IMG/VR virus record: IMGVR_UViG_3300034759_000219
Direction: 5' to 3' (one strand)
DNA length: 20,000 nt
Origin: an uncultured virus (IMG/VR IMGVR_UViG_3300034759_000219)
Taxonomy: Duplodnaviria; Heunggongvirae; Uroviricota; Caudoviricetes
In this document: positions 1-20,000 of the stretch, in pieces
How positions within the stretch are numbered: position 1 is the stretch's first letter
How the letters are laid out: every line of letters starts with the position of its first letter
The notes under the pieces: model-generated
Told to the model about the DNA's origin: nothing
The model's input: only the letters and a program-made list of their open reading frames with translations
The model's database searches: none
Made by a program: the position numbers and the translations under genes

Positions 1-3000
1 TTTAAGCCAAACATGTTAGCCACAGCATAGACACGATATGCGGTGTTACACAGGAAATTGAAACAATCGTACGATACAAAAACCGTTGAAGCTGTGGTTT
101 CACAATTAGAAAAAAGAGACTAGATAGATAGAATCGCAATGTAGGCTGTAGTAGCTGTAGAACTCGGGTGTTGTAGAACTACGCCTGCAGATTTGCACGC
201 TCTCTCAGATGGTGATATTACAGCCTAGTCGTTTTCTGCATAGGTATAGCACATGTATTCAATTCGAGACTAGATTGGCACTTCAACATTTGACGGAATA
301 TTTTCGTATACATTGAGGTCTGACTTATAGCAAATAGTACGTGACCTAGCCGTCCAATCTCGAGATGAACTAACAAGTAGAGAAAACGATTCTACAATAC
401 TTGGCGGCGTCGGCTAGATAATAAGGCGGTCTACAGACAGCTCGTCGCTATTGAAATATATAAAAGACAAGATGGTCATCTATCATAGTATTTCTCAGGA
501 CCAACTCAATATAGGTCTCAATATAGGTGGCGCTCCAGGTGGCAGTCGCACATCTTCAGATATGCCATCACAGCAAAATTTGTATCACTAGTAGTACTGC
601 TGTTACTCGAAACTTGTCGATTAGGTCTAGTCTGATGTTTAGAATTAGTACTATGTCACCGTACTTATGGTAGATGATGTAGACTCATTGCAGACATTAC
701 CAAAGTTATCCAGATTTGGCAGGTGGCTAGATGGTTAGGTTCACTTCATTTCGTGTCTCATAGAGATGCTACTGCAATTCTCTACGGATGAAATCCAGTA
801 GCTATTGCAGAGTGTAGGCATAGATGTTAAATAGTACAGTACTATACCATTTTAGTTGGACTACAGCTTAAGTGATATATTCACAGTTGCACATCCAGAC
901 AGGTTCACTTGGATATATGACCTAATCGAAAAATAGCTAAATATGCATAATACAGTCAAGCAGGCTATACGTACCAGCTTCCCAGGTAAGATAGATGAGA
1001 TATTAAGTCAAACTAGAGAGCTTAGAAGCGCAAAAGCACTATAGCTCATGGACTTTGAACAAGGTGGCAGTATAATAAACGAAGTTATACAACAAAAGTA
1101 CTTGAATGAGCCTGTTGCGACAGATATAGACACAGTTGCAAATGTACCTGTAGATGTCGACTTGGAAAAATTCAACAATTGGCTTGAGACGGTAAAAGGC
1201 TATGACTTTGATACATAGCAAAATAAGCTTGGTATCCAACCTGTCCTAAATGAGCTCAACCAATCACTGGCAATTGGTAGTTCAGCAATGATGTTCAAAA
1301 ACGTCCTTGCAATAAACTCCGCAGATTATTCAAGTTCGATATTATTCGAGTAGATGTACAACCTGTTGACAACTTCGTATGATATAGACTATCTGACACC
1401 AAACGCTCAGGTCTTGTTCATATACAGGCATGATATATAGCCAATATTCTATCCGCAATCGACTTAGGTAATCACATACAATTCTATATAGCAACTTAGC
1501 ATAGTCAAGCAAAAAGACAATCCTGTACATGTCGCAGATTTACTGCTTACAAACATGACTGGTGTAATAGACCCAGCTAATATATAGCTTGCTGTGTACG
1601 GAAAGACAGATTAGGTACCAAATTCAATTTAGAGGCTGTTCATAACAACTGGTGTCGAAATAGCTATACGACTTGGCTATGGCAGAAATATATCTCGCAT
1701 GCCAATTGTATTCCAAGGCTTTATCTAGGCAGTGCAATAGACAAACAATGCGGTGCATATAATTGCAGAAGGATATGGCGCATTATTAACAAGGTAGATC
1801 TTTGAAAAGCGAAAGCGAATTGGTGGCTTGGCATCTAACCCAATTGAGCTTGTATACTAGGCACTTAATAAGACTCAAGCTACACAATTCGGGCTAAAGG
1901 GCTTAATTGAGAACGTTGTAGCGAATGTCATGCAATTGAAATTAGACGATATGCTAGCTACGTCTTATGTAAATAAGCGCCTCCTACCGTTATTAAGAAC
2001 GACAGATTAGGTTGTGAACATATACTAGCCTACCGAGTACTATAATGGATATGGCAAGAGCTCGTACGGTGTATTCAAGAACTTTGAGACTTACTTTTGC
2101 GAATACAATGCGAAACCTGGTGATTCATAGTGGAAGCTTATACAAGACTAGGTAGACATGATGCCAGGTTATATAACTGGCTTTGTAGACTATGGTATAG
2201 GCCAGCAACGTGTGTTCTTTGGCAGACCGTTTGACCCTGCTAAGTTCACACCTACACCATTTACAGAACAGCAATTAAGCCAGCTTCAGAAGTCTGTCGA
2301 GTCAGTGTCTTAGCTTGAATTGCAAGACATAAAAGAGACAATTAAGCGTATACTTACAGAATGCAAAGAACTGCCTTTATTACCTGGTACACGCGAATAT
2401 TCAGAACAAGAAAAGCTTGAGATTGCACATTGGTTTGAGGACTAGCTAACTCGCATGAAAAACGAGTACAATTTCGCATCCCAAATCTTGGCTCAGTTTA
2501 AGAACAGTGAACTTGAGTCTGTCTTAGAGCAGTTAAACCCCAAAAACATACCGTTTTTCAGTTGGGATGTGAATGAACCAAGTAAGTTACGGATCATAGA
2601 CATGCTCAGAGAGTCTGCATAGGATTACACAAAGTAGTACCTATTCTAGGAGTATGTATATTAGCTTAGGAAGATACAAGAATTTGCAGATTGCTACAAA
2701 GATAAGCTATTAGCCTCAACACGAGCATAGCAGATAATAGAAAATACCACAATCTAGATAGACCAAACAGCTAGGTCGGCTACTGAGTATGCACTATTCA
2801 CACGACTTTCCAAGTCTGCACAGTATAGGGATATATACAATCGAGCTATAATTTTAGGTACAAAACCGTATTAGAGTATAGTACCTGTATCTAGCGAAAT
2901 AAATCTTATAGACAACTCCATAACTTTAACTACACGCGATATCGCAAATGAAGTAATTTTGTATTCGCCACCGTTCTTCCAAGATTGGTTCTTCTTAATT

Positions 3001-3876
3001 AGATTTGGATAGTGGATAGCAAATGCGCTGTCTGGATTCCAGGGTATAACAAAATACAATGGCAAGAACTACACTGTGACTACGATTACAGTAGATGACG
3101 ATATACCAGATGAATACAAAATTCAAAAGGTGGAAATTGTAGACTACGCAGAAGTGCTACAACAAAAAGTACTGGTTGGGACATCTAAACTCATGAAGCA
3201 CCTACAAACCATGTACGATGGCAATTTGACAATGCTTGGGTACCAGCTTTTGAAACCGCACGATAGGATTGTGCTAAATGACTCTGTAAATAACATGTAG
3301 GGCTGGTAGGTTGTTAGAGATGTCATACACAGGTACGATTAGCAAGTTGGATTTATAACACAGTTCAGTATAGAACCTGAGATTGAAGTGCGAGATTTGC
3401 ATGTGTCATCTCTGAAATAGCTTCTAACACGTACAATAATGGTTGCTACTGGCTTGTTACCTGTCATAGTCTGGGTATTCAGTGCGCCAATTGGGTAGGT
3501 TGTAACTGCATTTTAGCTTTCAATGAGCTTACAGCCGTTATTCAGTTCGTTACTTTAGAAGTACGTGCCAATTAGTCCATCGTTCAAAGCTGTAGATTCC
3601 GAATCGTCTTCATAGCAGATTTCACTTTCGCGAGTTGTAAATCCTATCTTTGTAAAGCCTATAGTGAAGTCGGGCATAATATACAGTGCTGGGCTGGAAG
3701 GTTCAAAATTTAACGAATAGGCAATTGGAGTATCTGGCTTGATAAACGATGCAAGAACAGGTATCAAGTACTTTACAGAAGGGCTCAAATAGTTCGGCTA
3801 GTAGTTCCAAGAAGGGCTTGCTATCTTAGAAGGTTAGATAGACATCGCACTCAAAGACCTGGAGAGTGGTATGTGA
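1..3876 (+). CDS. Large virion protein with baseplate-hub (gp27/gpD-like) motifs, 5'-truncated, >1290 aa, TAG read-through
   Basis: Frame +1 is interrupted only by TAG until TGA 3874-3876. Motifs LSIVKQKDNPVHVADLLLTN, IAIRLGYG..MPIVFQGFI..V..IIAEGYG and MYDGNLTMLG..LKPHDRIVLND..M*G..VRDVIH..GFIT resemble myophage hub proteins. It lies upstream of the gp25-like and J genes. Confidence 0.7.
505..528 (+). repeat. 12-bp perfect tandem duplication (CTCAATATAGGT x2), in-frame LNIG-LNIG
   Basis: Directly visible at 505-516 and 517-528. Confidence 0.85.
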
Positions 3877-4109
3877 TGTTTGTTAAATCGTACGATGTTA
3901 TGTCACTTGATATGCGCAGAGGTGTGGTAGAGATACAAGTTGAAAACGGTGAAGTTATCGAATATCCGTTTCAGTTTATTGGCATCAAAAACACAAAAAT
4001 AAGCTAGAGTGATGTCTCGGCTATGGTAATTGGCGAAGACAGGGTAAATGCAGTTGCAATCTTGTTCCCCAAGCATAAGCTTGTGACAAAACAGATTGAG
4101 CAGGGGTGA
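3876..4109 (+). CDS. Hypothetical baseplate-region protein, 77 aa (possible OB-fold like a spike N-terminus)
   Basis: TGATG overlap with the upstream gene. Begins MFVKSYDVMSLDMRRGVVEIQVENGEVIEYP, has 1 in-frame TAG, ends at TGA 4107-4109. Confidence 0.6.
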
Positions 4110-4113
4110 GCAT

Positions 4114-4467
4114 GTGGAGAATATCCTAAAACAGGTAGTTTAGTCTCTTGAGGAGTCTTAGCTGAAAAAGACATTCGAATCTGTTGTAATAGACACCATG
4201 AAAGGTGACAATTAGTTTATAAGGATACTTGGCAGTCAAATAGACATACATGGCACAAATGAAAACCATATCCGACTCGATGGCGAGACACAAGTTAGAG
4301 GCTAGCTCAGGTTTTTAGGTAGCCCAGATTAGTTAAAATTTGGTGCATTACACCAGATGTCGGGTTAGACTTTGTCCTTTGTACCGTCTACTGGTATATC
4401 GCCATTGCCAGTATTATAGCCACACAATCCAATTTAGCCAATTGTTTAGCTTATAAATGGTTTGTGA
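4114..4467 (+). CDS. Hypothetical baseplate-region protein, 117 aa
   Basis: GTG start after GGGGTGA. Open apart from TAG until TGA 4465-4467. Beta-rich middle segment FIRILGSQIDIHGTNENHIRLDG. Confidence 0.6.
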
Positions 4468-4476
4468 GGTGCAAAT

Positions 4477-4893
4477 ATGCGCGATATAAAGATTTCAAAT
4501 GGTGACATAGTCTTCAATGAAGCGGATTTTGCAAGTGCAGATAACTATTAGTAGGTTTAGAATGTAGTGCGAAATATAATTTTCACACGGCGTGGATCTA
4601 TGAAACAAAACACTACATTTGGCTCAGATTTATTACATAACAAAGCGATTTCTGAGCTGTAGGTGCGCTCTATTGATGACATTGCGTCTTATATAAAAGA
4701 AGACATGATGTACTCAATTTGGCTCACTAATCCAGGCTTGTATAAATTACTAAAGTGTGAGTATACCATAGACGAGGAAAACAAGACCATATACTGGCAG
4801 TTTTATATACAAGACAGCAGTGTCTTTGTACCATTGATGCTAGATGTCGGTACTGTACAGACGCAAATCGGTATAAAGTTAGTCTTCAAATGA
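4477..4893 (+). CDS. gp25/GPW-like baseplate wedge protein, 138 aa
   Basis: SD GAGGTG then ATG 4477. MRDIKISNGDIVFNEADFAS..V*NVVRNIIFTRRGSMKQNTTFGSDL matches the gp25-family T..G....FGS.L pattern. Directly upstream of baseplate J. Confidence 0.75.
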
Positions 4894-4902
4894 GGTGTTT
4901 TT

Positions 4903-6045
4903 ATGTTTGAATCTAAATCACTAAGCAGGATGATAAGCGATGTCGTAACAAGTATAGTATCAAAAACAAACATAGAGTCTGTAGAACCTGGTACAGTGCT
5001 TAGGTAGCTTATAGACTAGCAGGCATTGCAGGTATACGAATTACAAAGGTTTGTGTAGCTTTTGGCTTCATCTACCTTTTTAACAGAATAGTCAGGTCCA
5101 TTTTTGGATACGATTGCGACAATTTTTGGCTTAGCACGTCAGCCTTAGACAGTCGTCTAGTCTGTTGGTGGGATAAGGTTCTATACAGAAACTGGGGATT
5201 AGATTTGTAACTACATTAGTGATAGCTTCTTCAGTGAAAACCAGGTTATTGTGTATGACAAGTATGGCGGGTAGTATAACGTAGAACGCACCTAGATACC
5301 ATAGTACAAGATGTCACACCAATATGTCACATTAAACTAGACACCGATAGAAATAGCGAGAGAATCTATTTCGGCTGGCGAGATAAATTAGTACACACCT
5401 ACAATACCAGGTGTGTTGGTTACTAATACATCAAACCTACAACTTGTACAAAGCGCAGAAACAGATTCATAGCTTAGATACAGAATATAGTAGCATCTAA
5501 ATAGCTATAGAATGGCTACGTCTTAGTAGCTTAGGCTATAGTAGATGTCCGTACCTGGTGTCTAGGATTAGCGTGTTATTGAATTCCCACGTGGTATTGG
5601 ATCTGTGGACGTGTACATACTTGGGCTTGACATAAATACGGATGAATAGCTAATTCAACCTGTCTTGGAGTAGGTCAAGCCGTATGTTTAGGCTGGCATA
5701 GACCTAGATGTGAAGACATTTATAAAGACATACGTCATACTCGGCGGTATTGTAAGATAGGTTTAGAATGCCAATCAATAGAACGTATTAGACCAAATAG
5801 AGTCAGTTTAGCGGTCTGCGATAGACATAATCCAGCCTGGTGGTACAATGAACAAATTCGACTTATTGAGCCAAATAATTCGCAGTTGCGATCTTATCAA
5901 GACCATAGACGATTTTGCGGTTTATATAAAGTAGCCATCGAAATTTTAGGTGCCTAATAAGTTGTATTAGGACACCTATTATTGCTCTGAAAAGGAAAAG
6001 TTACTCTTAGCGCCCACAGACTGGCAGGTGTTTAAGATATTATGA
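4903..6045 (+). CDS. Baseplate J/gp47-like protein, 380 aa (31 in-frame TAG by manual count)
   Basis: SD GAGGTG. Motifs PGTVLR*LID*, FLTE*SGPFLDTIATIFGLARQP*T, AETDS*LRYRI, SVPGV*D*RVIEFPRGIGSVDVYI and V*AGI. Ends at TGA 6043-6045. Confidence 0.9.
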
Positions 6046-8099
6046 GACCAATCTTTGTCAAATATGACGGCCAGACACTGTCGTGGTTACATACCGCGCC
6101 ATAGCCGTACACTGTATATGTACGCAAATTTAAAGAGACTGCGTACAAGGTATTTGCTCAGACAGATCAAAATTCAATACCATTTAGCGATCTAGATGTC
6201 TAGATACAAATTAGACCAGTTGGCACATAGCCAAACTTTGAACAAGGCGATGATTACTACATATTTTCACAAGACAGAATACATACATCTCCAAACCTGT
6301 CGCTTTCCTTTCTAATGGACATATTCAGAAACTAGCTACCTGAATAGATTACAAAGCGGTTTTCAGATGTATCAAATGTCACACAACTTGCAGATTAGCT
6401 GTCCTAGCCTGGCGATTTTATAGCATTATCACTTCAGCGTGTATTTGCCGAGCGAAGTAAACTTGCCAGGATAGAGTTTAAACCTGCTAATAATTAGTAC
6501 ATAAAGTATGCTGGCAAATTTGATAACATATTCGCATTTGAGTATTCGCATTTGTTCAACACTGTAAGAGCTGTCAGACTTGTGTATAATCAAGCTCCAA
6601 CATTTCCTGATTCATACGTACCTGTGGTTGTTACAGACCTAAACATAGCGGATATATTCAGCACGAACGTGGTACATGAGCAAATAGAACGTGGCATAAT
6701 CTTTGAAGACAACTCAAAATGTTCCGTCCAATTTGATATGAACGCTTGCAAGCTGAACGTCATCTCACAGCTTACAGGTAGTGTTATATAGGACATGTCG
6801 TTTCCAGATGTACGCGAGCCTGGTGGATTTGAATTCGATTGGCACTATATATATATCTTGGACAACCATCTTAAGGTCATGCCGTAGCTTTACGATTACT
6901 AGGAGCTAGACTATGCGTATTTCGATTATTCTGGTCCATTTAAGCGCTTATTTATCTACCACATGCCAGAATACCAGACTTAGTACATGACACCAGTTGC
7001 AGAAATAAGAGTTGATGTACCACCAGAATGGAATATCGTGTAGATAAAGATGTTCAGTGGATAGATGCTATAGCTACTTGAAGATGGCAGAGTTTAGATA
7101 CTGTAGCCAAAATACTATTCATACTACAGTGCTGGCAGCAGTATAACAATCAATGACACGTTTTAGCAGGTATAGTTTTATAACAGCCAAACCAACAATT
7201 CAGTTATGTAGAGACTGAGAAAATTCAAAAAGTTACCAACAACCCTTGATGACTTGTTATACCTGTACGGTATGCACAGGTCTGAAGCTGAAGAGCCAGC
7301 TCGGTAGCTGTACAGGTTGTTTGTGGATATGCGCAACAACTAGCATGTGAACCAAACAATGATTAACCAAATCCTGCCAAATTAGTACTACCAAGTTACA
7401 AGCTTGAATGAGTTAGAATTAGAATATGGCAGTGACCTTATAGACCAGCTTGTCCAGATAGGCCAGCTACGTACATAGCCTACATTCAGTACATAGCAAT
7501 TTGATACATCTGACATAGCAACCAAACCTGCATTATAGCTTAAGAAGACGCGATATGATACTGGAGTATATGAAAACGCAGTTACTTCTATAGTCGACGC
7601 GATCCAGCGGCCTGTCATTATAAACAATGCCAACCCGATATAGGCTCTCAACTGTGAGTATATGTTTGTGAACGAGACTAGATAGTAGCTACAGGTTAAC
7701 AGTACAGATTGGCACGTGTTTAAACCTGGCAAGGTATGTATACAAGTATAGCCTTCTTAGTTGCAAAGTATAATACACCTTACCGAGCTTGATGCCTAGC
7801 TCGTATCGTCTAGCTTGTATGGAAAGAAGATTGTGCTATAGAGGTATCCATACGAACGAATACAAGTAGGCGACAAATACTTCAACGGCATAGGCCTAAT
7901 AAATGGCATGTACTAGTATTAGGTAGACAATACCGAGCTTGCCAAACCGCAAGTGTACTTTTATGGCGTTTGTGGGAATGAGCAATATCCACTAACTGCG
8001 TTTTCTGTAGACCAAGTTGCATATTAGTACATCTATGAAACAATTTAGCTTTCAATGCCATTAGAACAGTTTTATCTAGTCAAGGTGGTGGGTTCGTGA
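6042..8099 (+). CDS. Large baseplate/tail structural protein, 685 aa
   Basis: ATGA overlap with J. Frame +3 is open apart from TAG until TGA 8097-8099. LDDLLYLYGMHRSEAE resembles the LD..G..R..E motif of wedge (gpI-like) proteins. Confidence 0.65.
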
Positions 8100-8827
8100 A
8101 AGATATAGACCTGTTAAAGTAGAACAGGACTGTAACGTACATAACATAGTAGCACGTAGCTAACTATGTAACTGGCTTTGAGATCACGTACAATGTGTAC
8201 AAGCAGTTTCTAAAACGGCTTGTTGTGTTCGATGTCAGGACAAAGTACCATGAAAATGATAACTTTCAGCCATATCGCGCTAAAGTTGCATTTTGCGCAG
8301 GCGAGTTAGGTAACTACGACCCGGCAAAATTCGACCTTGCAAAGTTTTCATTTGACAGGTTCTAGAGTGAAATGTACCAATCTAGTACAGGATGGAATAT
8401 GTCATATTGGAACATCTTCGATACGCATATAGATTTTCGAGATTATGTGACTTAGCCGTGTATAGATTAGACATTATACGAGATTAATACGGCTGGCACA
8501 TTGCCATCTTTAGATGCAGATAACCCAAATGTGATAGTTGTGTCCTACAGACATGGCATACTTGTACCGAATATACAGCTTGTAAACGGCAAGTTTCAAT
8601 TTAGCTTCTCATATCCTGTCGATGACTATGAGCCACTTATTTGGTTTTACAACAGCAAGTTGACCTTATTCGTCCAAACGACAAACCTTGTACATATAGA
8701 TGGCGAAGTAGACGAGATGAGTGTTAGCTAGTATTGTAGTGTGCCATTAGATATCACACTAGATGAACTTGGTTATATGTAGATAGACCAGCATAATTAC
8801 AAAAAGGTTGTTGATATTTCACTCTGA
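8096..8827 (+). CDS. Hypothetical structural protein, 243 aa
   Basis: GTGA overlap with SD AGGTGG. Includes track ORF 8501-8731. Ends at TGA 8825-8827. Confidence 0.65.
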
Positions 8828-8864
8828 AAGGAGGACGTGCTGATACTTTACAGCACGAACAAAT

Positions 8865-9746
8865 ATGGTAACACTGCCATTTAAGATGTATCCGCCATAT
8901 TAGAAAATAATCAAGTCTGGACATGAAAGCAACAACGCTATACTATTGGCTATATAGGAAGCTGTAGACAAGACAGCAGATAAGTTGTTTTATATCCAAG
9001 CTCAGGGTAGACATCCAACTTATACAGTGACATACACAGACCAGCAGTTACCAGGTTATATATACACAAACGTTGTTCATCCTAAAACTGGTCTGCCATT
9101 GTTTTATATGCAAGAACTGCCATATTTTTCATTCAAGACGCAAGCTGAGCTAAATCAGTAGATTAAGCTTGTCTCGTCTTCCGACGAATAGGTCTCAGAT
9201 AAGTTGTATCATATAACTACAGACGATGGTATAAAGATCTGGACGAATATCAAGTCAAGTGACAGCGAAGTATTCTATATCCAGCTTGCGCCATATCCAA
9301 ATTCTGCGATTGGAGTCCAAAAGAAGATACTTTTAGATACGCGCATTACACAAGACTCATTTCAAAAGCCTAGTGAGTTCTAGTGGTAGTTAGATATCGG
9401 ATACAAAGAACGTTATGTACCAGAATAGCTAACCATAGACAACTAGATCCCACTTTTAGAGTTCACTCAAGACAAGTATACAGGCATATCAAGGCAGTAT
9501 GCATTGAAAATTGGCGAAGGTTTGTACAAGGTTCAGCCGTTGATGTACACTGAAGTATTTTGCAAATACAAAGTCACGTCTTATTCAAGCCATGGCTATA
9601 TGATGATAGACTCTGTCGAGCCTGTAGTTGAGGTATTGTGTGTATTCGAGTAGTTTGGTACACCGATATATACAGATATAAGGCAGGATTCATATTAGGC
9701 GTATGTCGCGCCATACCTTGGTGGTGAGTACCTTGAGCTCATATGA
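8865..9746 (+). CDS. Hypothetical structural protein, ~293 aa (start uncertain)
   Basis: Frame +3 is open apart from TAG from ATG 8865 to TGA 9744-9746. The strong upstream SD serves a different frame (see findings). Confidence 0.6.
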
Positions 9747-10167
9747 CACATCTGTGTTTGATGGCATCTACTAGGTTGGCTAGCCATAGATATAGGTATT
9801 GGTAAAATAGCAGGATTTATACAGTATATACCAGTACCTGAATGATACGTCTGTATTCAACCACATAAAATAGGCAGGCTCGTTCATACTGTTCCTAGAC
9901 AGTGACACATTGGTACCACTGTCTAACACTGTACAAAACTTCTTTCAAGATAGTTTGTCTGTTAATTTAAACGCGCATTAGTCTACTGACTCTGAAAATG
10001 CAAGCTTGTATATAAGTCTAGTAAGTCAATAGTCTGGTACGAGTACATAGTCTCAGCAAGCTTCCGAGTATGTACAAGTTACAAATGAACTCGAACCACC
10101 TTTTGTGTTTGGCAAGTCTGTGTTTTCGTCTGATAACTTCATTATGTCGTAGTTTTGCAAATCCTAA
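9733..10167 (+). CDS. Hypothetical protein, ~144 aa
   Basis: TTG 9733 after GGTGGTGA (GTG 9721 or 9724 are alternatives). Open apart from TAG until TAA 10165-10167. Confidence 0.55.
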
Positions 10168-10181
10168 TGTTAGTCACTACT

Positions 10182-10188
10182 GGAGGTG
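10182..10188 (+). promoter_or_regulatory. Shine-Dalgarno GGAGGTG for the tail-fibre gene, whose second codon is TAG
   Basis: GGAGGTG lies 5 nt upstream of ATG 10194, which is followed by TAG 10197-10199. Confidence 0.8.
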
Positions 10189-10193
10189 TGTGT

Positions 10194-10958
10194 ATGTAGT
10201 ACACTCCCGAGACAATCTACGTAGGCAAGATCATAGCTGCAGAATGGGGCCAAAAAATAGAACAGATGTTTCAACGCATGGGCAACTATATGGGTGTAGT
10301 AGACTCGGTATCATAGTTGCCCAATGTATCTGAAGCTGCCGAGTCAGATTGGTACATAGTTAGACAAGAGAGATAGATATATTAGAAGATAAATAACCAA
10401 TGGGAAAACATTGGCGGAGTCTCATATGACCAGCTGATAGGTACCGTGCCAAGGTCATAGCTATCTGGTACGTACGATATAGATATCACTGGTACATAGG
10501 CGCAATAGACAAAGCTATAGACGTAGCATACGATAAATGGCGTAGGTTTCGATGGCACACAGAACATAACAGTTACATAGACTACACCCAATAAGGTGAC
10601 ATTCAACTCATCTGGTGGATAGCAACCTGGCACTACATTCAACGGCTTGGCTTAGATTACAGTCTCATATGAAACAGTTGGAGCATAGTAGGCATCTCAT
10701 ACACATACAAATTACCTAAGCCGAGATGGCGGCACAATGAATACAACCACACTTGTGACTAATTTAAACGCAGACATGGTAGATGGATATCACTAGTCCA
10801 GCTTTTCACTGTCTTCGCATACGCATGATTCAACTTACCTCAACAAAGCAGGCGATACGATGACTGGCAATTTAAATTGTAATTAGGTGGTAAATTGCAA
10901 TTAGAATGCAAATAGCAGACTTGTATTACCGGTCGGGACAAATAAATATGCAACATGA
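10194..10958 (+). CDS. Phage tail fibre protein, 254 aa
   Basis: N-terminus M*YTPETIYVGKIIAAEWGQKIE. Fibre motifs T*AQ*TKL*T*HTINGVGFDGTQNITV, SYETVGA**ASHTH, NLNADMVDGYH*SSF, SHTHDSTYLNKAGDTMTGNL. C-terminus RLVLPVGTNKYAT, then TGA 10956-10958. Confidence 0.9.
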
Positions 10959-10968
10959 GGTGGTATGA

Positions 10969-11439
10969 ATGCCTGTAGCTGGATCTGTGTGGATAGAAGG
11001 GTGCAGTTTAAAATTCATAAACCAATATGGTGTATAGCGTGCCTTGACTGGTACATCACTAGGCTCGACAAGTGCTAAACCTGGGTCTGTATGGGTAAGT
11101 GGCGCTTACATATACTATGTGTGTCAGAATGCGCATATACACATGTGCAATTATAGATATACAAATATAGGCCCCATTCAGGGCAAGCCGGGCTCTGTTT
11201 GGATATCATCACAAGACTTATATTATGTAGATCAAGACGGAGTTATAAGGGAAGCATGTACTGGGTGTGAATAGTACTGCACGTGCGATATGTGTGCTGG
11301 ATGCGATGCGTATTGTTGCGGGGCATGTGATACGACATGCGATGGTTGTGACACATACTCGTTTTGTGGAACATGCGTTGAATGCGACGGGTGTGATGCA
11401 TATTCATGCTAGTGTATGGTATGCGATATAGGTGTCTAA
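10969..11439 (+). CDS. 156-aa protein with three GSVW repeats and a C-terminal Cys-rich CxxC[DE] repeat domain; putative radical SAM substrate or fibre-associated protein
   Basis: SD GAGGTGG. Repeats AGSVWIEG, PGSVWVSG and PGSVWISS. Last 60 aa are CTGCE*YCTCDMCAGCDAYCCGACDTTCDGCDTYSFCGTCVECDGCDAYSC*CMVCDIGV (18 Cys). Ends at TAA 11437-11439. Confidence 0.85.
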
Positions 11440-11473
11440 CAATTGAGTGACTTTAGCTAAAGGAGGCCTGCTG

Positions 11474-12613
11474 TTGCGACACGTCACGCCACACGAGTTG
11501 GTAGGGGCAGTTAGAAATATTGTTGTTGACAATTAGCTTACTTTAAACATCAATTCTGGTGCAGATTAGTGCCAATTATAGTGCGTATACTGCTCGGTAC
11601 GGCCGTTTAACACGCATGACTTTCGAGAAATGACCAAGCCTGAGTTAAGAATATAGCTCGAATTTGCTGGCAGTGTACTTGGTGATAAGCTAAAGCATAT
11701 ACATTTCTTTGGGCGGGAACCATTAATGTCACCGACAATAATTGAAGAAGCGCGTAGGCTTATGCCCAATGTCACCATAACGATAACAACAAACGGTGTT
11801 GCACTCTAGCAGGATAAGCAGTTGTAGAAAATGCTAAAGCGAATCAACGCAGTTGTAACTATACTATCGATTGACGGACCATACCACAATTCACATAGGC
11901 CTACAAGAACTGGAGAAAATTCACTAGATCTAGCAATACAAGCCTGGGAACAACTTGATGATTATAAATTTACGCGCACATCCGTCAGGTCGACATACCT
12001 ACCAGGCGAGAGCCTTGTCGACTATTTCAAATTCTAGCAAGATGTTTTACATGGCTAGAGAATTACGCCAATGCCAGATATACACACAAGTATGTTCGAT
12101 AGCAAAGACGTCGAGGAGAAGGTTCGCGAGCTAGCAGATTATTTTGGCAACCAGGATCCACCATCTGAGTCGTACAAGGGATACCTGTATGAACTTGAAG
12201 GCAAGAGGCGAAAGAGACGTGCGTTTTGTATTGTAGGCATGTTTGCGATTGGACCAGGGCTGGATGTATATACCTGTCATCATTAGCCGGATGATGTCAA
12301 AATAGCCAATATAGCGCAAGGAATTGTGTACGACGAAAACATAAAATTTGTACTAAATGCGCGCAGCATGTCTGTTGACACAGTTGAAAAATGTCTAACA
12401 TGTCACAACAGACAATTTTGCCCAACCATAGGGACGTGCTCAATGTAGTTTCTTAAGGCTGGTAACATTATGGAACCAAATGACAGCTTCTGCGAGTTTT
12501 CCAAGGGATTCTAGCATGGATGTTTCTACTGGTTATCGCTACGCACGAGAAGTAAACTGCTTGACGCTTTGAACAAGATAGGAGGAGATGCATATGAAAA
12601 TACAGTTTCTTGA
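11474..12613 (+). CDS. Radical SAM enzyme with C-terminal SPASM domain, ~379 aa
   Basis: SD AAGGAGG 11460-11466 and TTG start. CxxxCxxC is CQL*CVYC (11570-11593). Also FFGREPL, ITTNG and LSIDG..HNSHR. SPASM cysteines in C..FAIGPGLDVYTCH, CLTCHNRQFCPTIGTC and FC. Joins three track fragments via TAG. Confidence 0.92.
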
Positions 12614-12884
12614 TGAAAATAATAGCGTTTTGTACGAGACGGATGGGGTATATGCAGCCAAAAGGCTTGTGTATGATCACGAGGAATTTGCATGGGTTGA
12701 ACATATCTAGATCAGATGCTAGGTTGATTACGACCAATTAAAAAACCTCATACAGCCAGTAAAGAAAGTAAAGATCATAAGCAGCACGGGCAGCATTGAG
12801 TACGACATCACTGTGAGTACCAAGGCAACAATCGCAAGGAGTGCTTCAGATAGTACAAAAACCATGATTGTGATCCAGCAATAA
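12594..12884 (+). CDS. Small hypothetical protein, 96 aa (probable paralog of the next gene)
   Basis: SD AGGAGGAG. Begins MKIQFLDENNSVLYETDGVYAAKRLV, has 2 TAG, ends at TAA 12882-12884. Confidence 0.75.
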
Positions 12885-12900
12885 TGTTAGGAGGGATCCA

Positions 12901-13203
12901 ATGCTGAAGATCATACTTACCGATGCAAACGGTACGCAAGTTGGAGAATTTGAAGTACTAAGGTAGAAAAGGGTTATAACCAAGGGCTAGGCAAACTATG
13001 TAGACCAGCTTATCTGCCAGTTGCGATAGTCATTTGAACAAGTTGCTTAGTGTATACCGATTGCACGAGGCGCCTAGATATACGCAGATGATGTCGCACT
13101 ACTTGAAACGTCCATGTCGACAGAAAAAGGCGTTGGTGTTTCGGAAGATATTACCACACAAGGTACAGTGACACTAGACATAGTCATGGATGTTATCAGT
13201 TAA
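12901..13203 (+). CDS. Small hypothetical protein, 100 aa (probable paralog of the previous gene)
   Basis: SD AGGAGGG. Begins MLKIILTDANGTQVGEFEVLR*KRVI, ends at TAA 13201-13203. Confidence 0.75.
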
Positions 13204-13258
13204 TTGTTAAGTTTCACTTGTAACCTTTTGTGTGGCACAGCTAAGGAGCTGAAAGATA

Positions 13259-13489
13259 ATGTATTAGTTAGCCAACGGTAGTAGTACGGTATACAATGTA
13301 ACCGCCTGTTCAGATGACTTATCACAACTGCACGTGAAAGACCTGGCATCTTCATACAAACAGTTGATAGGAAAATGTCTAAGCTTATATTCAGAAGACG
13401 GTGTGCTTGCCTGCACGGTTGATCTGAAAAATATTGAGATACTTATGGATATAGGCTCACAAGACGGCATAATCATAATAAACAGGTGA
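13259..13489 (+). CDS. Small hypothetical protein, 76 aa
   Basis: SD AAGGAG. Begins MY*LANGSSTVYNV, ends at TGA 13487-13489. Confidence 0.6.
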
Positions 13490-13493
13490 ATTA

Positions 13494-15413
13494 ATGCCAT
13501 TACCGTATTGGATTGAGCATGACCAAAATGACAATGCAACTGGATACGTCTATGTAAAAGTGCCATCTATACCAGCTAACTAGCAAACTGCTATAACAGC
13601 TAGTTTAGATGCATCGTGCCAACCTGATGGCTCTAACACGTTTGTACTATTTGACGACTTTTTGTAGACTATCAATACTAATGTATATGACGTGTTTACT
13701 GGTCCGAATGCTCAATAGACAATAGAAAATGGCAAGTTAAAGCTCGTATGTAATAACTCAGTGCATACAGGCGCAACACTGATATCAAAGCAGTAGTTTC
13801 CAGACCAATAGTACATCCTAGAGTTTCTAGGTTGCGTTGTAAGTTAGTACAATGGTGGTGCCCCAACACTAAACATTGGCTTTACAAACAAGTCTCAGTA
13901 TGACAGCTCATACTATTTCAGATATGCGCCAATCGCAGCATAGGAAATATACGAGTATACATCCTATAATAGAGTTATGGTATCTGTATTCAATGACCAA
14001 TGGGAGTCTGGCTCATTGTCCCAGTATGAAACGATCATAAACAAATGGGCCCGAGTTGTATAGTCTATATCGTTTACACAGAAAAAGACTATAGGTACAT
14101 TCAAATGGGGCAACTCATTAGCTACGGTAACATCCCCTGTCGGACAGTAGCTAGACGGGTCGAAGTATTTTCAAATCAACTTTGGAGAGTATCAGAGCAA
14201 CAAAATAGCCTATCTTGATTGGTTCGCTTTGAGAAAATACGCAGATGTAGAGCCAACTGTGTCTGTACAACAGGTCGGGCAGATGTATGTCATAACTATT
14301 ACAAATCCAAACTAGTACTAGCTCAGTGACTACCAAATTAAGATACCAATCTCGTAGTTGTCTGTTACATCACCATCCACAGGAATTAGGTTTGACACAA
14401 ACCTAAGGCAAATAACTATTCAGACGGTTAGAAAGCTGGTATAGCAGAATGGCTACACAGCATCTACACGTAGAGTGTAGACTGGATTGATATCACAACC
14501 AGTGCCTCTTTCAACTAAGGTCGTCGGCCTAAACAGTGCAAGTATTGTGAATATGGCTATACCAGCATCTACATAGATCAAATACTCAGGCAACACATCG
14601 CAGTCTGGATTTTCAGTATCTACAATCATAGGTAGCGAAGTCATTGGCGTACCGCCTGCTGTACAACCGTACTTGTACTATCCACTCACGAGCGACTTTT
14701 TAAACTACGGTACATAGGGTTCAGCGTGGGATCCAAACTAGGTGTTTAATGTCAGTATATCCGCTACAGGCTATTCTTCTATACAAACATAGTAGAATTT
14801 TAATGGTACCAACTCGAGGATAAGAGTACGTACATACGAGTCTTTGGATACGATATACAAAAATAGAAGCTGGTCAATTTCACTTTGGCTTTCCTAGCGC
14901 CAACTGGCTGGTACAGTGTACAACTATGGCTATGGTGGTTCATCAGTCAGCTCGACAAGCGAAGCTACAGGCCATACACTTAGGATAATCAACTACAACA
15001 ACACTCCAATTCTTTAGATTGTAGCTTTTTAGGCAGGACAAACAAACGAGACATCCACGTATTTTGACGGCTTTAAGTATATAAGCAAGAGTGGGTATGT
15101 AAGGATATACGGTGTAGTTATAAACGCGAATGTACTAAACCATGTGGTTCTAACCTATAACAACAGTACGAAAAGGCTTTGTATGTATCTGAACTCGAAC
15201 CTTGTACATGACAACGTCGAGTTCACAAACCCGATGTACTGGAACCAGTATGACAAAGAGCCGTTCACTATAGGATAGCACACATACGACGATGGAGGCT
15301 CTGAAGGTCCGCCAAGCAACTTCTTCGATGGGTTCATATAGCACTTTATGTACTATACAGATACCGTATTAACACAGGACAATGTTAACTTCTTGTACAA
15401 TATGCGCACTTAA
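13494..15413 (+). CDS. DUF2341-like plus LamG/ConA-like domain protein, 639 aa (putative receptor- or glycan-binding tail appendage)
   Basis: DUF2341-type motifs MPLPYWIE..YVKVPSIPAN..DGSNTFVLFDDF, YLDWFALRKYADVEPTVS and ITITNPN*Y*LSDYQIKI..GIRF. LamG motifs YYPL, **NFNGTNSRI, WSISLW, NHVVLTYN, MYLNS, FTIG*, FFDGFI and LTQDNVNFLYN. Ends at TAA 15411-15413. Confidence 0.85.
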
Positions 15414-15457
15414 TTTAAGCTTTTGCGTCTTGAGTATTATACACACGAGGTGATGTT

Positions 15458-16198
15458 ATGGCAAAGGTACCAAGTGTTGTTATAGCTACTCCAGCATATG
15501 GAAACATGGTACATGTGAATTATCTGCACACAATCTTTTCACTTCAACAGCGCCGTGATATCAGGATAACACTGCTTACAATTGGAAATGAGTCGCTAAT
15601 TACAAGAGCACGAAATAACCTTTTAAGCATGTACTACCACCATTTTTAGGATTGGGATTATTTGTTGTTCTTAGATGCAGATATTGGTGTAGATGCGTCT
15701 GGAATAGTTACAATGGCAAATCGCAGGTTAGATATGTGTTGTGCACCTTATAGGCTTAAAAACCCAGCTGTTGTACAACTTGCTGTGACTAAGGTTATAG
15801 ACGACTCGACCTTCCCACTTGTAGAAGTTGAACATGCCGCAACTGGTGTCATGATGCTCAGCAGAAAACTAGTTGAAGATGTTGTTAGTTATGCCAAGAA
15901 GAACAATTTGTACTATCCAGATCCAATGTAGTATACAGAAAACAATGTAGATACAAACGTAAGACGGGACATATATGACGTGTTTCAAGTCGGGATAGAC
16001 AAGGACATAAATACATATCTGTCTGAAGATTACTGGTTTTGTAGGCTTGTAAGACAACTTGGATACAACGTGTACGTAGACATGTCAGTTGCAACAGTAC
16101 ATTCAGGCACACTTGCACTACCGTACAATATTTCCATGGCTGTCAGGCCTACGGCGCAGGAGGATGAAAGCAATGAAGACACAACTGAATCTAAGTGA
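15458..16198 (+). CDS. GT-A fold glycosyltransferase-like protein, 246 aa
   Basis: SD GAGGTGA. Motifs VVIATPAYG, ESLITRARN, DYLLFLDADI (DxD), ATGVMMLSR, YLSEDYWFCR and VHSG. Three same-frame track ORFs are joined by 2 TAG. Confidence 0.85.
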
Positions 16199-16703
16199 TA
16201 ATGTATGTGTAGCTTAGCCTACACAGTCGAATGACTCAGTCCGTATAGTAGGGCATGTATGTGTATATTAGCAAGACAAACACGGCAATGTCAGAGTCGT
16301 TGCTGAAAGCGACAACACAATTACACAAGCAGGTAAGCAGATGATATACCAATTTTTACAATCAACATCAAGCCAATAGGTGGCATAGAACATAAACTAC
16401 ATAGCAGTTGGTACAGATAATACACAACCGTCTTAGTCTAATACCAAGCTATACAACGAAATAGGCAGGAAACAGATTCTGTCCAGGTACATAGGCGATA
16501 CAGTCGCAAAGTTTTCAGTCTAGTTTGAAATGAATGAATAGAACCCACCTGCAGGTCAGGCTATTACGGAAGCTGGGCTGTTTTAGAACGGTACAGCTCA
16601 ACCTGATACTGGTACATTATTTGCCAGGGTCCTGTTTTAGCCTGCAATATTGAAACAAGAAGACGAGATGCTTGTTGTAGTCTGGACGGTATCTATCACT
16701 TGA
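16173..16703 (+). CDS. Tail-collar/baseplate fibre-attachment-like protein, 176 aa
   Basis: SD AGGAGG. Motifs NTITQAG, YIAVGTDNTQPS*SNTKLYNEIGRK, FEMNE*N, ITEAGLF, GTLFARVLF and K...LVVVWTVSI. Ends at TGA 16701-16703. Confidence 0.8.
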
Positions 16704-16866
16704 CAAATTTAGATGTTACATTTGCCCCGCAGTATACGCCAAATAGAGCTATGACTGCGTGGGCAAAATTGTCATTGTCTATGCAATTGAGCACACGCAG
16801 TACAAACATGCCTGCGATCAGTATCTAAGCTAATATGAACTTTCTGCTTTTGAATTTTTCCTCCAT
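16696..16866 (-). CDS. Putative holin, 56 aa, 2 TM segments
   Basis: SD GAGGTGA. MEEKFKSRKFILA*ILIAGMFVLRVLNCIDNDNFAHAVIALFGVYCGANVTSKFVK has the SRKF...Y.G.N pattern of small phage holins. Confidence 0.75.
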
Positions 16867-16871
16867 ACAAC

Positions 16872-17243
16872 TCACCTCGTGACAAACAAAAGTACAACTC
16901 CGCCAATTGCTATAGCTGCTACTACAGCAAATGCGGTCTATGAGTTTTGCTATGTTTGAAGTTTCTTTTCCAACTCTGTCACTTTTGACTCGTATGCGGA
17001 TAGTGCACTCTTATAGTTTTCAATTTGCTGTTTGAGGTTCTATGTGAGTTGTTCAAGCGTCTGAATTTGCATCTTGTAGTTTTGGTTTAGCTATTCGATT
17101 TTAGCTATATATTCAGCAAGCTGTATGACAGCTTGTTCTTCCAAATAATACCTGCCATCTTCGCTTTTGGTAATTATCTTGTACTCTTGTGTAAAAGCAC
17201 ATATTGCGCATAAGATTAGCAGGATTGTCAATATCTTTTTCAA
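16872..17243 (-). CDS. Signal peptide, coiled coil and C-terminal TM protein, 123 aa (spanin-like)
   Basis: SD GAGGTGG and TTG start. MKKILTILLILCAICAFTQE, then a heptad-rich middle, then AFAVVAAIAIGGVVLLFVTR. Adjacent to the holin. Confidence 0.65.
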
Positions 17244-17253
17244 GCCAGCCACC

Positions 17254-17514
17254 TCACTTTTTAAAGAGCTTGTTTATATAATCTGCTGCATCTTGCTAAT
17301 TATCGAATTTCTTTTGAGACTGAATTTGCTGTTCTTGCTTCTTAAGTTCTTGAAGTTTTTGCTCAAGTTCGGCTTGTTCTTGTTCAAGTTGCTTGTTCTA
17401 GTCTAAGCTCGGCTTTGGCTTGTGTGATTTAAGTGTGGTACCTAATACAAACGCAGCAATCGCCAAAATTAGCCACCAAAACTTTTTGAGAAACTCTACA
17501 ATCTTTTTCCACAT
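17254..17514 (-). CDS. N-terminal TM plus coiled-coil protein, 86 aa (i-spanin-like)
   Basis: MWKKIVEFLKKFWWLILAIAAFVLGTT followed by QLEQEQAELEQKLQELKKQEQQ. Has 2 TAG and a TGA stop. Confidence 0.65.
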
Positions 17515-17516
17515 AG

Positions 17517-18749
17517 TTATCGCCTCTTTGATAGTATTATCCTTACATCTGCTAGACTAACGTTGTGTATGGAACTAGCTGCATATTCCACGTACGGCAG
17601 TACGGTCTTCTTTTGTGAGTCTACGTCCCACATGTACATAAACCTGTCAGGTTCTCTGGTAAATGGTTTACCTGTAAGCATGAATAATGGCACGATGATC
17701 CTATCAGATGGGCATATATACCACAAAAACATTACAAGCTAATCTACGCAAGATGCACGTAAATTGCCATATTCTGTATACTGAAGTGGTATCGTACCTT
17801 CACCATACTGGACATTGCCAGCTTGACCTAAGAATGTAGAATCGAGGTATTTTATGATATCTGTTAGTTTTTGCTTTGTATCGGACGCCTATACCTGTTT
17901 CATAGTGTCTGTATCCGTTGAAGACAGCTAAGCAACTAGGTAGTCATACTAGGTCTATCGACTTATACCTAAGTCTTTTTCAATCCCGCCATACACGCCA
18001 CCTATTGTATCGTTTAGAGATAGAAAGCCACACTAGTTAAATTGGTAATTGTAGCTTTGTGTTAACTACGCAAATCTATCCAAGTCTTTGCACTTGATGT
18101 ATATATTTCCTTTTGTCATTGGCTAAATACTGTAACATATAGCAAGCCAGCTTGGCGTACCTGTACTGTCTAACTAATATGGATATCTTGTGACTTGTAG
18201 CATGCGCGTATATACCGCATGCTAATATTCAAATGCTGGCTTGAATGTAATACTTGGATTCTGCACTAGTACAAGCTAAAGGCTGAACTATTCCTAGTTG
18301 ATGTTATACCCTTCCAACATATTGAAAAGTTCAATCTAATAGTACAGTTCTTCTGTTGTTAAAGCTTGTTTCCACTAAGCATCTGCAAGCTTGTCATTTA
18401 CTACAGTCTAGCCTGTATTGCTGAGTGGAATATACGTAATCCCGTCTAATGCGATCTAATCATCTGCATGCTTCTTGTTTGTAAATGTCCCGTACATGAA
18501 CGAGTCGTACTAGCCGGTTTTCTTAAATGCGAAGTAATCATCACAGACTTCACATGGTTTCTTCTTTTGTTCTAAGATCTGTGCAAGTGAGCTTGAATTG
18601 TCATACTGCCTTGAATTTATATAGTCATCTCGCTATTTGACATACTCATCGTACTATGGCAGTCTTGAGTATGACTATACAAACTTCTATGTGAACATGA
18701 CATACAAGCTTAATGGCATTGAATTTTGAGCTGTCTTTATAAGCTACAT
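17517..18749 (-). CDS. Hypothetical protein, 410 aa (probably structural)
   Basis: TAATG overlap with the upstream gene. Begins M*LIKTAQ, is open apart from TAG until TAA 17517-17519, and includes track ORF 17517-17732. Confidence 0.7.
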
Positions 18750-19135
18750 TAGACCTAACCCCAGTCACCACTAAGTGATGGTATTATAACTAAGCTCAGC
18801 TTCTCACCTGTAAAAGACACGCCAGTTGGAGGTTGTACCTTTAAGTAGAAGTCGACAGATTCGCCTTCCTATAAGCCTTCGCAAATTTGTATATAGCTCT
18901 TATGTCCACATACTCTTGTAAAGGTTACATTGTCTAAGCTCATATAGACCATCGAAGTGTCAGATGAGCCGTCTTCAAATAAATCCCCACCAAATGGGAT
19001 CGATTTGAGATACATGGAACTGTCAAAGCATGTAGCTACAGTTCGGCCTATGTCTGTATTCTACGTTACAGTGATCTTAAACAATGTATCACTAAGTCTT
19101 GTAGCCTGTACGTTTACTAGCTAGAGCTCGGTCAT
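18749..19135 (-). CDS. Hypothetical beta-rich protein, 128 aa, similar to the C-terminal domain of the upstream gene
   Basis: SD GAGGTGGTG and TAATG overlap. MTEL*LVNVQATRL...GL*EGESVDFYLKVQPP. Confidence 0.7.
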
Positions 19136-20000
19136 TACACCACCTCAAAGTCTATGTATAGTGGTATACCTGTAATAGGTAATATATCGGCTGGCTAGTT
19201 TACTTTTATGTATATGTCGACACTACTGCCGTTATTGAGCGTATCTTGCTTGACTGTAACGTACTGCTCACCTACAATCTTGAACAGTGTATCAAATGAT
19301 GTACCAACTTCAATTCGTGCAGTGTCTTGCGATATAGCCTGGTTGGATATTCCAAACATGCGCCTTGCTAAGTTATGTTCGCTGTCGTATGGATCGTTTT
19401 CAAACCCTAACCTGATGTTCATGATATCAGACCCAGTACTGTTTACCAATGAAAGTTTGTACAGCTTTGACTCTTGCGGGAACAGTGCAATTGTGTCAAG
19501 TTGGCTTTCAAATCCATCTTGTAATAGCCTTATGAACCCTATGTACTTTATGTCCAGTAGCTCCGTATATATAGGCTATAATGCCCATATGTCCCTTACC
19601 ACTTGCAAATTAAGCTAGTTATATAATCCAACTCGTCGTATAGCCTGTGCCTGAACGTATCTGTACTAGTACGTTGTTCTTACAGATTGGCTTGTACTGG
19701 TATGCGATTTGGTTATGCTACGTACAAGTTGTAAAATTGGGAATCCGCCATCTTGTACAACCCTCTGTGTCTGAAACAGTTCTTGTACAAAGCCATAGTA
19801 GTCTCTTAATGTTTGAGACACGTAGCTTGCTAGTATTACAGTGCTCCTACTAGTTTGTAAACTCAATTCATCTGGCAAAATAGGCTTTCTGGATGTCTAT
19901 GTTATATATTCGATTAGAGATATCAACTCACGAGTAGTTTGTAAACTCAATTCATATTCAATTAGATATATCAACTCACGAGTAGTTTGGACAAGGCGTG
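19135..20000 (-). CDS. Repeat-containing (QTxR, ~14-16 aa period) fibre-like protein, 5'-truncated
   Basis: One frame joins track ORFs 19666-19878 and 19195-19449 via TAG and is open to the window edge. Ends PLYIDFEVV, then TAA 19135-19137. Confidence 0.7.
19906..19989. repeat. 48-bp-period imperfect tandem repeat (coding; QTTRELI[YS]LIEY), with a partial third copy at 19851-19871
   Basis: TATCAACTCACGAGTAGTTTG occurs at 19921 and 19969. TAGTTTGTAAACTCAATTCAT occurs at 19851 and 19935. Confidence 0.85.

Follow-up and report, generated by a model that had tools for sequence, protein, structure and literature searches.

The codon TAG has very probably been reassigned in full from stop to alanine in a phage lineage represented by a 20,000-nucleotide stretch of DNA from an uncultured virus of the Caudoviricetes (IMG/VR record IMGVR_UViG_3300034759_000219). 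This whole stretch, referred to here as the window, appears to be the part that encodes virion and lysis functions in a tailed phage genome of roughly 62-76 kb. An earlier note, made from the letters of the DNA alone, had proposed that TAG is read as alanine, and this proposal is supported by the alignment columns of standard-code homologs in two protein families, by curated family models, by a recoded relative and by the composition of the genes. We also consider it likely that there exists a lineage of environmental tailed phages with a UAG = alanine code, a code described for no virus or cell.

Under table 11 the window yields 35 open reading frames (ORFs) of at least 60 amino acids, the longest of 136 amino acids, and its longest stop-to-stop frame under the standard code has 139 codons. 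When TAG was taken as a sense codon, the five longest frames extended to 1291, 687, 643, 415 and 388 codons; in the controls, TGA taken as sense gave a longest frame of 148 codons and TAA one of 217, and when TAG was taken as sense in 200 base-shuffled sequences, the longest frame averaged 175 codons, with a maximum of 277. The genes that are broken under table 11 thereby become whole, forming 24 abutting genes (18 on the plus and 6 on the minus strand) that make 98.7% of the window coding. All 24 carry TAG, 283 in-frame TAG codons in total, and they end in TGA (16 genes) or TAA (8 genes), as the earlier note had stated; TAG ends none of them, and none of the 14 genes of L001, a relative described below. 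A GGAGGTG-like ribosome-binding site precedes most gene starts. The base following TAG has the same distribution as that following the other NAG codons (p=0.21), and a special 3' base context that would weaken termination at TAG was rejected on this ground. TAG is a frequent, ordinary sense codon in the window.

All of the amino acid strings quoted in the earlier note are present in the window translations (X standing for TAG): GTXAQXTKLXTXHTINGVGFDG, GAXXASHTH, DGYHXSSF and SVSXLP in the tail fibre protein; TEXSG, RQPXT, TSXXLRLXXMSVPGVXDXRV and VXAGI in the baseplate J-like protein; XXNFNG and IGX in the LamG protein; and FILAXILIAG in a 59-amino-acid membrane protein.

What TAG means was tested mainly on the gene of the baseplate J-like protein (4903..6045, plus strand, 380 amino acids), which contains 31 TAG and 13 GCN codons. 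A search with TAG written as X returned 497 matches, of which the best 150 were used; three matches shorter than 250 amino acids were left out, as was P0001, a protein 58% identical and with 10.5% glutamine that likely shares the recoding. In the resulting set of 146 standard-code homologs (mean alanine 8.3%, mean glutamine 3.2%), alanine was the commonest residue in 12 of the 31 TAG columns and glutamine in none, and three of these columns were strongly conserved for alanine (128, 110 and 105 of the 146 homologs). Pooled over the TAG columns, alanine accounted for 1050 of 4283 residues (24.5% against a background of 8.5%), and glutamine for 2.9% against 3.2%. A Codetta-like log-odds calculation over the 30 well-occupied columns gave +14.0 nats for alanine, -3.5 for serine, -16.6 for threonine, -18.1 for lysine and -18.2 for glutamine. 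The same calculation recovered the standard meaning of 24 of the 33 sense codons seen at least 5 times; the misses were mostly to chemically similar residues and by no more than 5.1 nats, as compared to the TAG margin of 17.5 nats. One of its hints, that ACA might mean serine, was rejected, and a second reassignment with it, since the comparison with the relative (below) gives threonine for ACA by 90 nats.

For the tail fibre protein, a profile search found 56 proteins, of which P0152, the same strain's own copy, was dropped to leave 55 homologs; 13 TAG columns were usable, each having at least 6 aligned homologs. Alanine was the top residue in 7 of the 13 and glutamine in 1, and the pooled columns held 155 alanines among 414 residues (37% against a background of 12%). 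The log-odds were +5.2 nats for alanine and -5.5 for glycine, the next residue, with 15 of 15 control codons recovered. A profile tally with TAG as X, which the earlier note had suggested as a check across the genome, thus returned in these two families a consensus of alanine, and not of glutamine, of serine or of no single residue. Glutamine, the residue of code 15, was top in 0 of 31 baseplate and 1 of 13 tail fibre columns, and the clear alanine consensus is not the lack of consensus that marks code 34.

Curated models gave scores that point the same way where they discriminate at all. The genes were translated with TAG as each of several residues and scored against PHROGs and Pfam. For phrog_6 the baseplate J-like protein scored 81.4 bits with alanine, 67.5 with serine, 64.8 with glutamine, 60.2 with threonine, 59.0 with leucine, 55.7 with glutamate, 55.3 with lysine and 51.5 with glycine; for Pfam Baseplate_J (PF04865) it scored 37.8 bits with alanine, 23.8 with glutamine and 19.1 with X, so that the gathering cut-off of 21.1 bits was passed with either residue and missed with X. 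The tail fibre protein scored 38.9 bits against phrog_6722 with alanine, followed by glutamate (30.6) and glutamine (29.2), and passed E 1e-4 for ten tail-fibre PHROG families with TAG as alanine as compared to six with TAG as glutamine. Five models were flat: phrog_1802 (threonine 79.2, glutamine 78.9, alanine 76.6 bits), phrog_5417 (glutamine 77.7, alanine 76.6), phrog_20474 (serine 48.6, alanine 48.4), DUF2341 (glutamine 44.2, alanine 42.1) and Laminin_G_3, whose domain scanned alone gave arginine 33.8, alanine 32.1 and glutamine 30.7 bits. These five neither support nor contradict the alanine reading, and their flatness means that alanine carries no general scoring advantage. In the full-length protein Laminin_G_3 was matched solely with TAG as glutamine; this was rejected as a glutamine signal because of the near-equal scores of the domain alone.

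A scan of metagenome contigs yielded two relatives, L001 (13.8 kb of a 44-kb contig) and L002 (7.3 kb), which are 98% identical to each other and were therefore counted as one. Both are syntenic with the window, 29-61% identical to it gene by gene and 54-59% in baseplate J, and both need TAG read-through, with 142 TAG codons in 14 genes and stops that are all TGA or TAA. Among the codon pairs aligned between the window and the relative that have at least 3 identities at the eight flanking positions, TAG faced TAG in 79 and a different codon in 126, the number of shared TAG positions lying between 79 and 97. The partners in the 126 unlike pairs were alanine (37), serine (19), glutamine (11), threonine (11), glutamate (8), methionine (6), proline (6) and leucine (5), the rest being scattered. 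Judged by the substitution pattern measured on the same alignments, alanine was the best fit, by 38 nats over serine and 47 over glutamine, and alanine stayed best without the flank filter (56 nats) and with a strict one (11 nats). GCA, GCT, GCG and GCC all occur as partners of TAG, GCA being the commonest as it is in overall usage; this spread over four codons indicates that the exchange reflects meaning and not a mutational shortcut. TAG thus occupies positions at which alanine is conserved, and it and GCN replace one another.

In a leave-one-codon test TAG grouped with alanine by 31.5 nats, as did GCA, GCC, GCG and GCT. All 39 control codons from families of three or more codons were placed correctly; 17 sense codons failed, all of them from one- or two-codon families, a class in which only TGT was recovered. 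Same-codon pairs are left out of this test (the diagonal is removed), and it is therefore valid only for families of at least three codons.

Among GenBank phages neither a DNA comparison nor tblastn, run with the tail fibre protein or with baseplate J, found a relative. IMG/VR likewise yielded none to a protein search, an alignment or a degenerate pattern including the conserved TAG, and scans of species genomes gave none either. The bases at the 5' end of the window and at the 3' end of L001 had no match in the viral contig collection.

The composition of the genes fits TAG as an A+T-rich synonym of GCN. TAG makes up 4.3% and GCN 4.4% of window codons, 8.8% together, and the corresponding sum in L001 is 9.6%. 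With GCN as the only alanine codons, alanine would stand at 4.4%, against 8.3% in the baseplate J homologs, a gap that TAG would fill; were TAG glutamine, that residue would reach 8.5%, against 3.2% in the homologs. The TAG share of TAG plus GCN is 48% in the window, which has 39.8% G+C, and 36% in L001, which has 48.5%. The share of TAG among alanine codons is thus higher at lower G+C, with the sum of TAG and GCN steady at 9-10% of codons. As for other codons of the window, ATA is the main isoleucine codon (283, against 111 ATT and 85 ATC), ACA is the main threonine codon (247 of 454), and tyrosine is high at 5.5%.

Comparisons within the window, to which the earlier note had already pointed, agree with alanine, but they are few. 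CTGCEXY, from the cysteine-rich repeats, lines up with CAGCDAY and CDGCDAY, the X standing opposite A, T and A, and in the paralog pair at 12588-13203 the XKR of the 100-amino-acid protein stands opposite the AKR of the 98-amino-acid protein. One gene is poor in TAG in both relatives: the glycosyltransferase-like gene has 2 TAG and 17 GCN codons in the window, and its counterpart in L001 (10983-11720) has 0 TAG and 15 GCN, whereas in its neighbours TAG supplies about half of the alanine codons. The gene could have been acquired recently from a source with the standard code, or it could be expressed early.

The sequence itself was recovered independently. A sequencing-run index returned 20 runs, 16 of which contain at least half of the sampled words; these come from four studies, with anaerobic digester, mixed culture and subsurface samples among the runs carrying the sequence, and no RNA dataset was among the runs listed as holding it. 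One of the four studies may be the source of the record, and contigs were compared from one run of each of the others, together with one further run holding a small share of the sampled words. The contigs of the three other studies (37.6 and 24.6 kb among them) cover 1-11344 and 11382-19941 at a depth of 11 to 44 and differ from the window by 112 letters (99.4% identity). A 34-residue baseplate J fragment of the window is moreover on record on four contigs, the longest of 75.8 kb. The sequence occurs in contigs of three further studies and is therefore no artefact.

Among the 40 listed of 123 strain differences, 38 codons are changed, 9 of them synonymously, and no window TAG is touched; one change, at window 8409, turns a TGG (tryptophan) into a new in-gene TAG in the other strain. 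The listed differences (window 1-11146) have the look of near-neutral or diversifying change between strains 99.4% identical, and the changes are dominated by G>A (25) and C>A (16-17) out of about 109 per run. Strain differences pile up at 10283-11411, where a single contig of 336 bases differs in 19 letters and has a deletion of 6 bases, and in all three well-covered runs the contigs break at 11344-11411, within the repeats. This region fits a fast-evolving host-recognition region.

Other explanations of the TAG codons were weighed against this body of evidence. That they result from sequencing, assembly or record editing, or that the genes are dead, was raised as a check by the earlier note and has nothing positive in its favour; the contigs of three further studies, the 38 changed codons that spare every window TAG, the TAG positions held in common with a relative only about 55% identical, and the frames open over nearly the whole window leave it a negligible probability. 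A second rival is glutamine (code 15), the reading known from crAss-like and Lak phages and adopted in the public translations. The available text of the Borges preprint reports only the reassignment of TAG to glutamine and that of TGA to tryptophan for phages whose code differs from that of the host, glutamine being the sole reassignment of TAG, and public proteins carry glutamine at TAG positions (17 of 17 in P0152 and 24 of 24 in P0208, both from the same strain, and 23 of 31 in P0001, from a relative). One tail-fibre column favours glutamine, and it lies 1-2 bits above alanine for phrog_1802, phrog_5417 and DUF2341. Against this, glutamine falls 32 nats below alanine in baseplate J and 47 below in the comparison with the relative, costs 14 bits for Baseplate_J and 17 for phrog_6, shows no enrichment at the baseplate TAG columns, and would imply the glutamine excess described above. 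According to the part of the Cook preprint available, virus gene callers offer only tables 15 and 4; the glutamines in the public proteins would be the default of such callers, and an assumption of the caller is no evidence for glutamine. We regard this reading as very improbable.

That TAG stands for another small residue, most likely serine, or else threonine or glycine, we consider very unlikely. Serine came second in the baseplate J test, ranks next after alanine among the partners of TAG in the relative and scores within 2 bits of alanine in the flat model families, and the baseplate J profile test does confuse similar residues in some controls. Alanine nevertheless leads serine by 17.5 nats in baseplate J, by 38 nats in the relative, by 13.9 bits for phrog_6 and by 8.9 bits for phrog_6722, no control codon of the baseplate J test was misassigned by more than 5.1 nats, and the shortage of GCN alanine relative to the homologs is filled when TAG is alanine. 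As for pyrrolysine or another non-standard residue, supplied through an archaeal host that reads all TAG as pyrrolysine, such archaea exist according to the available text of 10.1101/2024.09.30.615893, and methanogens would be at home in the habitats (digesters, subsurface, oil field). The same text has pyrrolysine TAG replacing varied codons without a consensus residue, which makes it unlikely here, where the alanine consensus is clear. It would be implausible for a bulky lysine derivative to occupy 4.3% of positions, some of them in columns with up to 88% alanine, and in a separate count TAG was exchanged with lysine once in 106 pairs with another codon. This explanation has an extremely low probability.

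Several points weigh against the alanine reading itself. Alanine is not the commonest residue in 19 of the 31 baseplate J columns, column 223 being mostly valine (88 of 146), and one tail fibre column holds 19 glutamines and 9 alanines. The baseplate J profile test missed 9 of its 33 control codons, alanine was not the top residue in any of the five flat models, and just 8 to 11 residues were tried per curated model. The strong signal rests on two protein families and on one pair of related lineages. Finally, no tRNA was found in the window, L001 and L002 (41 kb in all) with ARAGORN and Rfam, nor any release factor or synthetase gene, and no other Rfam family was found in these three sequences.

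As judged by family matches, the window appears to encode virion and lysis proteins of a tailed phage, the markers being baseplate J (PF04865, phrog_6), tail fibre, radical SAM, DUF2341 with Laminin_G_3, phrog_1574 and phrog_5417, together with three small membrane or coiled-coil proteins. The plus-strand genes open with that of a large virion protein (1..3876; 1291 codons, its 5' end open at the window edge, 60 TAG, 64 GCN, stop TGA), which matches phrog_20474 and phrog_8809 at residues 1047-1134 and whose ortholog in L002 has about 200 extra N-terminal residues. It is followed by genes for proteins of 78 amino acids (3873..4109; 1 TAG, stop TGA) and 123 amino acids (4096..4467; 9 TAG against 1 GCN, stop TGA), both with orthologs in L001, and of 138 amino acids (4477..4893; 4 TAG, stop TGA). 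Downstream of the baseplate J-like gene lie those for a 685-amino-acid protein of no known family (6042..8099; 37 TAG, stop TGA), whose L001 ortholog is 39% identical, and for proteins of 243 amino acids (8096..8827; 8 TAG, stop TGA), 293 amino acids (8865..9746; 10 TAG, stop TGA) and 154 amino acids (9703..10167; 10 TAG, stop TAA). The tail fibre gene (10194..10958; 254 amino acids, 17 TAG), matched by PHROG tail-fibre families, has TAG as its second codon and a GGAGGTG ribosome-binding site before its start. TAG stands directly after ATG in the tail fibre genes of both relatives (window 10194, L001 7829) and in the gene for a 410-amino-acid protein; alanine is common as the second residue of bacterial proteins.

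Next on the plus strand is a cysteine-rich repeat protein (10969..11439; 156 amino acids, 3 TAG), hypervariable between strains, in which three GSVW repeats are followed by many CxGCDxY units. It adjoins the tail fibre gene and that of a radical SAM enzyme (11447..12613; 388 amino acids, 11 TAG; Pfam PF04055, phrog_1802), and may be a virion protein cross-linked by this enzyme. Among solved structures, the closest to this protein is the ChlB radical SAM domain (E 6e-8; the PDB profile matches are weak); no homologs were found by protein word search, nor in the PDB by sequence, and tblastn gave 6 distant phage matches for it and 4 for the phrog_5417 protein. The 98-amino-acid (12588..12884; 2 TAG) and 100-amino-acid (12901..13203; 5 TAG) paralogs are adjacent and match no known family. 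They are followed by a 76-amino-acid protein (13259..13489) whose single TAG is the third codon, a 639-amino-acid protein with DUF2341 and a Laminin_G_3 domain (13494..15413; 24 TAG), for which a homolog search returned its own strain's copy only, the glycosyltransferase-like protein (phrog_1574; 15458..16198; 246 amino acids) and a 176-amino-acid protein (16173..16703; 9 TAG). The earlier note had labelled a gene as encoding a collar protein; this label is unsupported, the sole match of the 176-amino-acid protein being phrog_5417, to which PHROG assigns no function.

The six minus-strand genes encode a 59-amino-acid membrane protein, holin-like by build (16696..16875), which matches no family and carries its 1 TAG within the hydrophobic helix FILAXILIAG; a 126-amino-acid protein with hydrophobic ends and a coiled coil (16872..17252; 4 TAG); an 86-amino-acid protein with one hydrophobic helix and a coiled coil (17254..17514; 2 TAG); the 410-amino-acid protein, of no known family (17517..18749; 23 TAG, the second codon among them), with an L001 ortholog 29% identical; and proteins of 128 (18749..19135; 4 TAG) and 279 amino acids (19135..19974; 5 TAG).

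A possible route to an alanine meaning of TAG is offered by the way in which alanine tRNAs are recognized. The G3:U70 pair is said to be a major mark of alanine identity and universally conserved (PMC12574857, available text), and the synthetases for alanine, leucine, serine and pyrrolysine do not read the anticodon (PMC11028032, available text). TAG would probably be decoded by a tRNA with anticodon CUA and a G3:U70 pair, which the alanyl-tRNA synthetase (AlaRS) of the host would charge because AlaRS ignores the anticodon and takes G3:U70 as alanine identity; by this logic a passage of TAG to alanine should be easy. Such a tRNA could be encoded by the phage, or the host too could read TAG as alanine. 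Release factor 1 would have to be absent, altered or blocked during expression, since a gene with up to 60 TAG codons would yield no product if translation terminated even weakly at each of them. The spread of TAG, which would be the only A+T-rich alanine codon, is plausibly driven by A+T mutation pressure.

If the lineage is indeed as we propose, it has at least three branches, 54-59% identical in baseplate J, in which TAG is the main A+T-rich alanine codon and supplies about half of the alanine. It would imply that a tRNA-Ala(CUA) exists in nature and that the host, possibly one that itself reads TAG as alanine, lacks release factor 1 or has it switched off; a direct question is then by what means this factor is neutralised. 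The natural genetic codes would gain a new member, and with it would come a natural, evidently very efficient amber-to-alanine system, with 60 sites in one gene. The finding also exposes a systematic annotation error, in that public collections carry glutamine at the TAGs of this phage's proteins; current virus gene callers would silently mistranslate such phages by writing glutamine. A full-text literature search, with supplementary tables outside its scope, found no report of TAG or UAG read as alanine in a phage or bacterium.

To our knowledge, UAG is read as alanine only in some green-algal mitochondria. Within the Sphaeropleales, UAG is reportedly read as alanine in the mitochondria of some species and as leucine in those of others, as Hayashi-Ishimaru is said to have found in 1996. 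The text available from PMC12574857 describes a stop-to-sense change of UAG in Scenedesminia/Sphaeropleales mitochondria, where UAG is a sense codon as it is in the window; those are organelles with their own release factor, however, whereas the window belongs to a phage of prokaryotes and contains far more TAG. According to the same text, a tRNA needs only to acquire G3:U70 for AlaRS to charge it, whichever anticodon it has, and AGR to alanine has been proposed for pedinophyte-derived plastids and mitochondria. The route by which the codon would pass to alanine is the one suggested here, although the capture of AGR is a sense-to-sense change in organelles and that of TAG a stop-to-sense change in a phage. 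In archaeal code 34 TAG is likewise a dedicated sense codon, in overlapping habitats, yet its available description has pyrrolysine without consensus at TAG columns, where the window has alanine.

The closest systems are the TAG-recoded phages of code 15 (crAss-like, Lak and other gut clades). As far as the available texts of the Borges and Cook preprints and PMC9523058 describe them, in-frame TAG abounds in their virion and lysis genes, which terminate in TGA or TAA, and gene callers restore these genes by reading TAG through. The Borges preprint, in its available part, adds TGA to glycine for phages whose host does the same, and explains the limited range of phage recodings by which host synthetases tolerate a changed anticodon; an alanine code would extend this logic. 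A suppressor tRNA is reported in 35-52% of TAG-recoded phages in the texts available, and the 41 kb of the window, L001 and L002 yielded none. The window differs in the weight that TAG carries, 4.3% of codons and about half of those of one amino acid, with TAG in all 24 genes, and in coming from digester, subsurface and mixed-culture samples and not from guts. By its sequence, this phage shares the read-through features of the TAG-recoded phages and parts from them in the amino acid, their TAG aligning with glutamine and that of the window with alanine.

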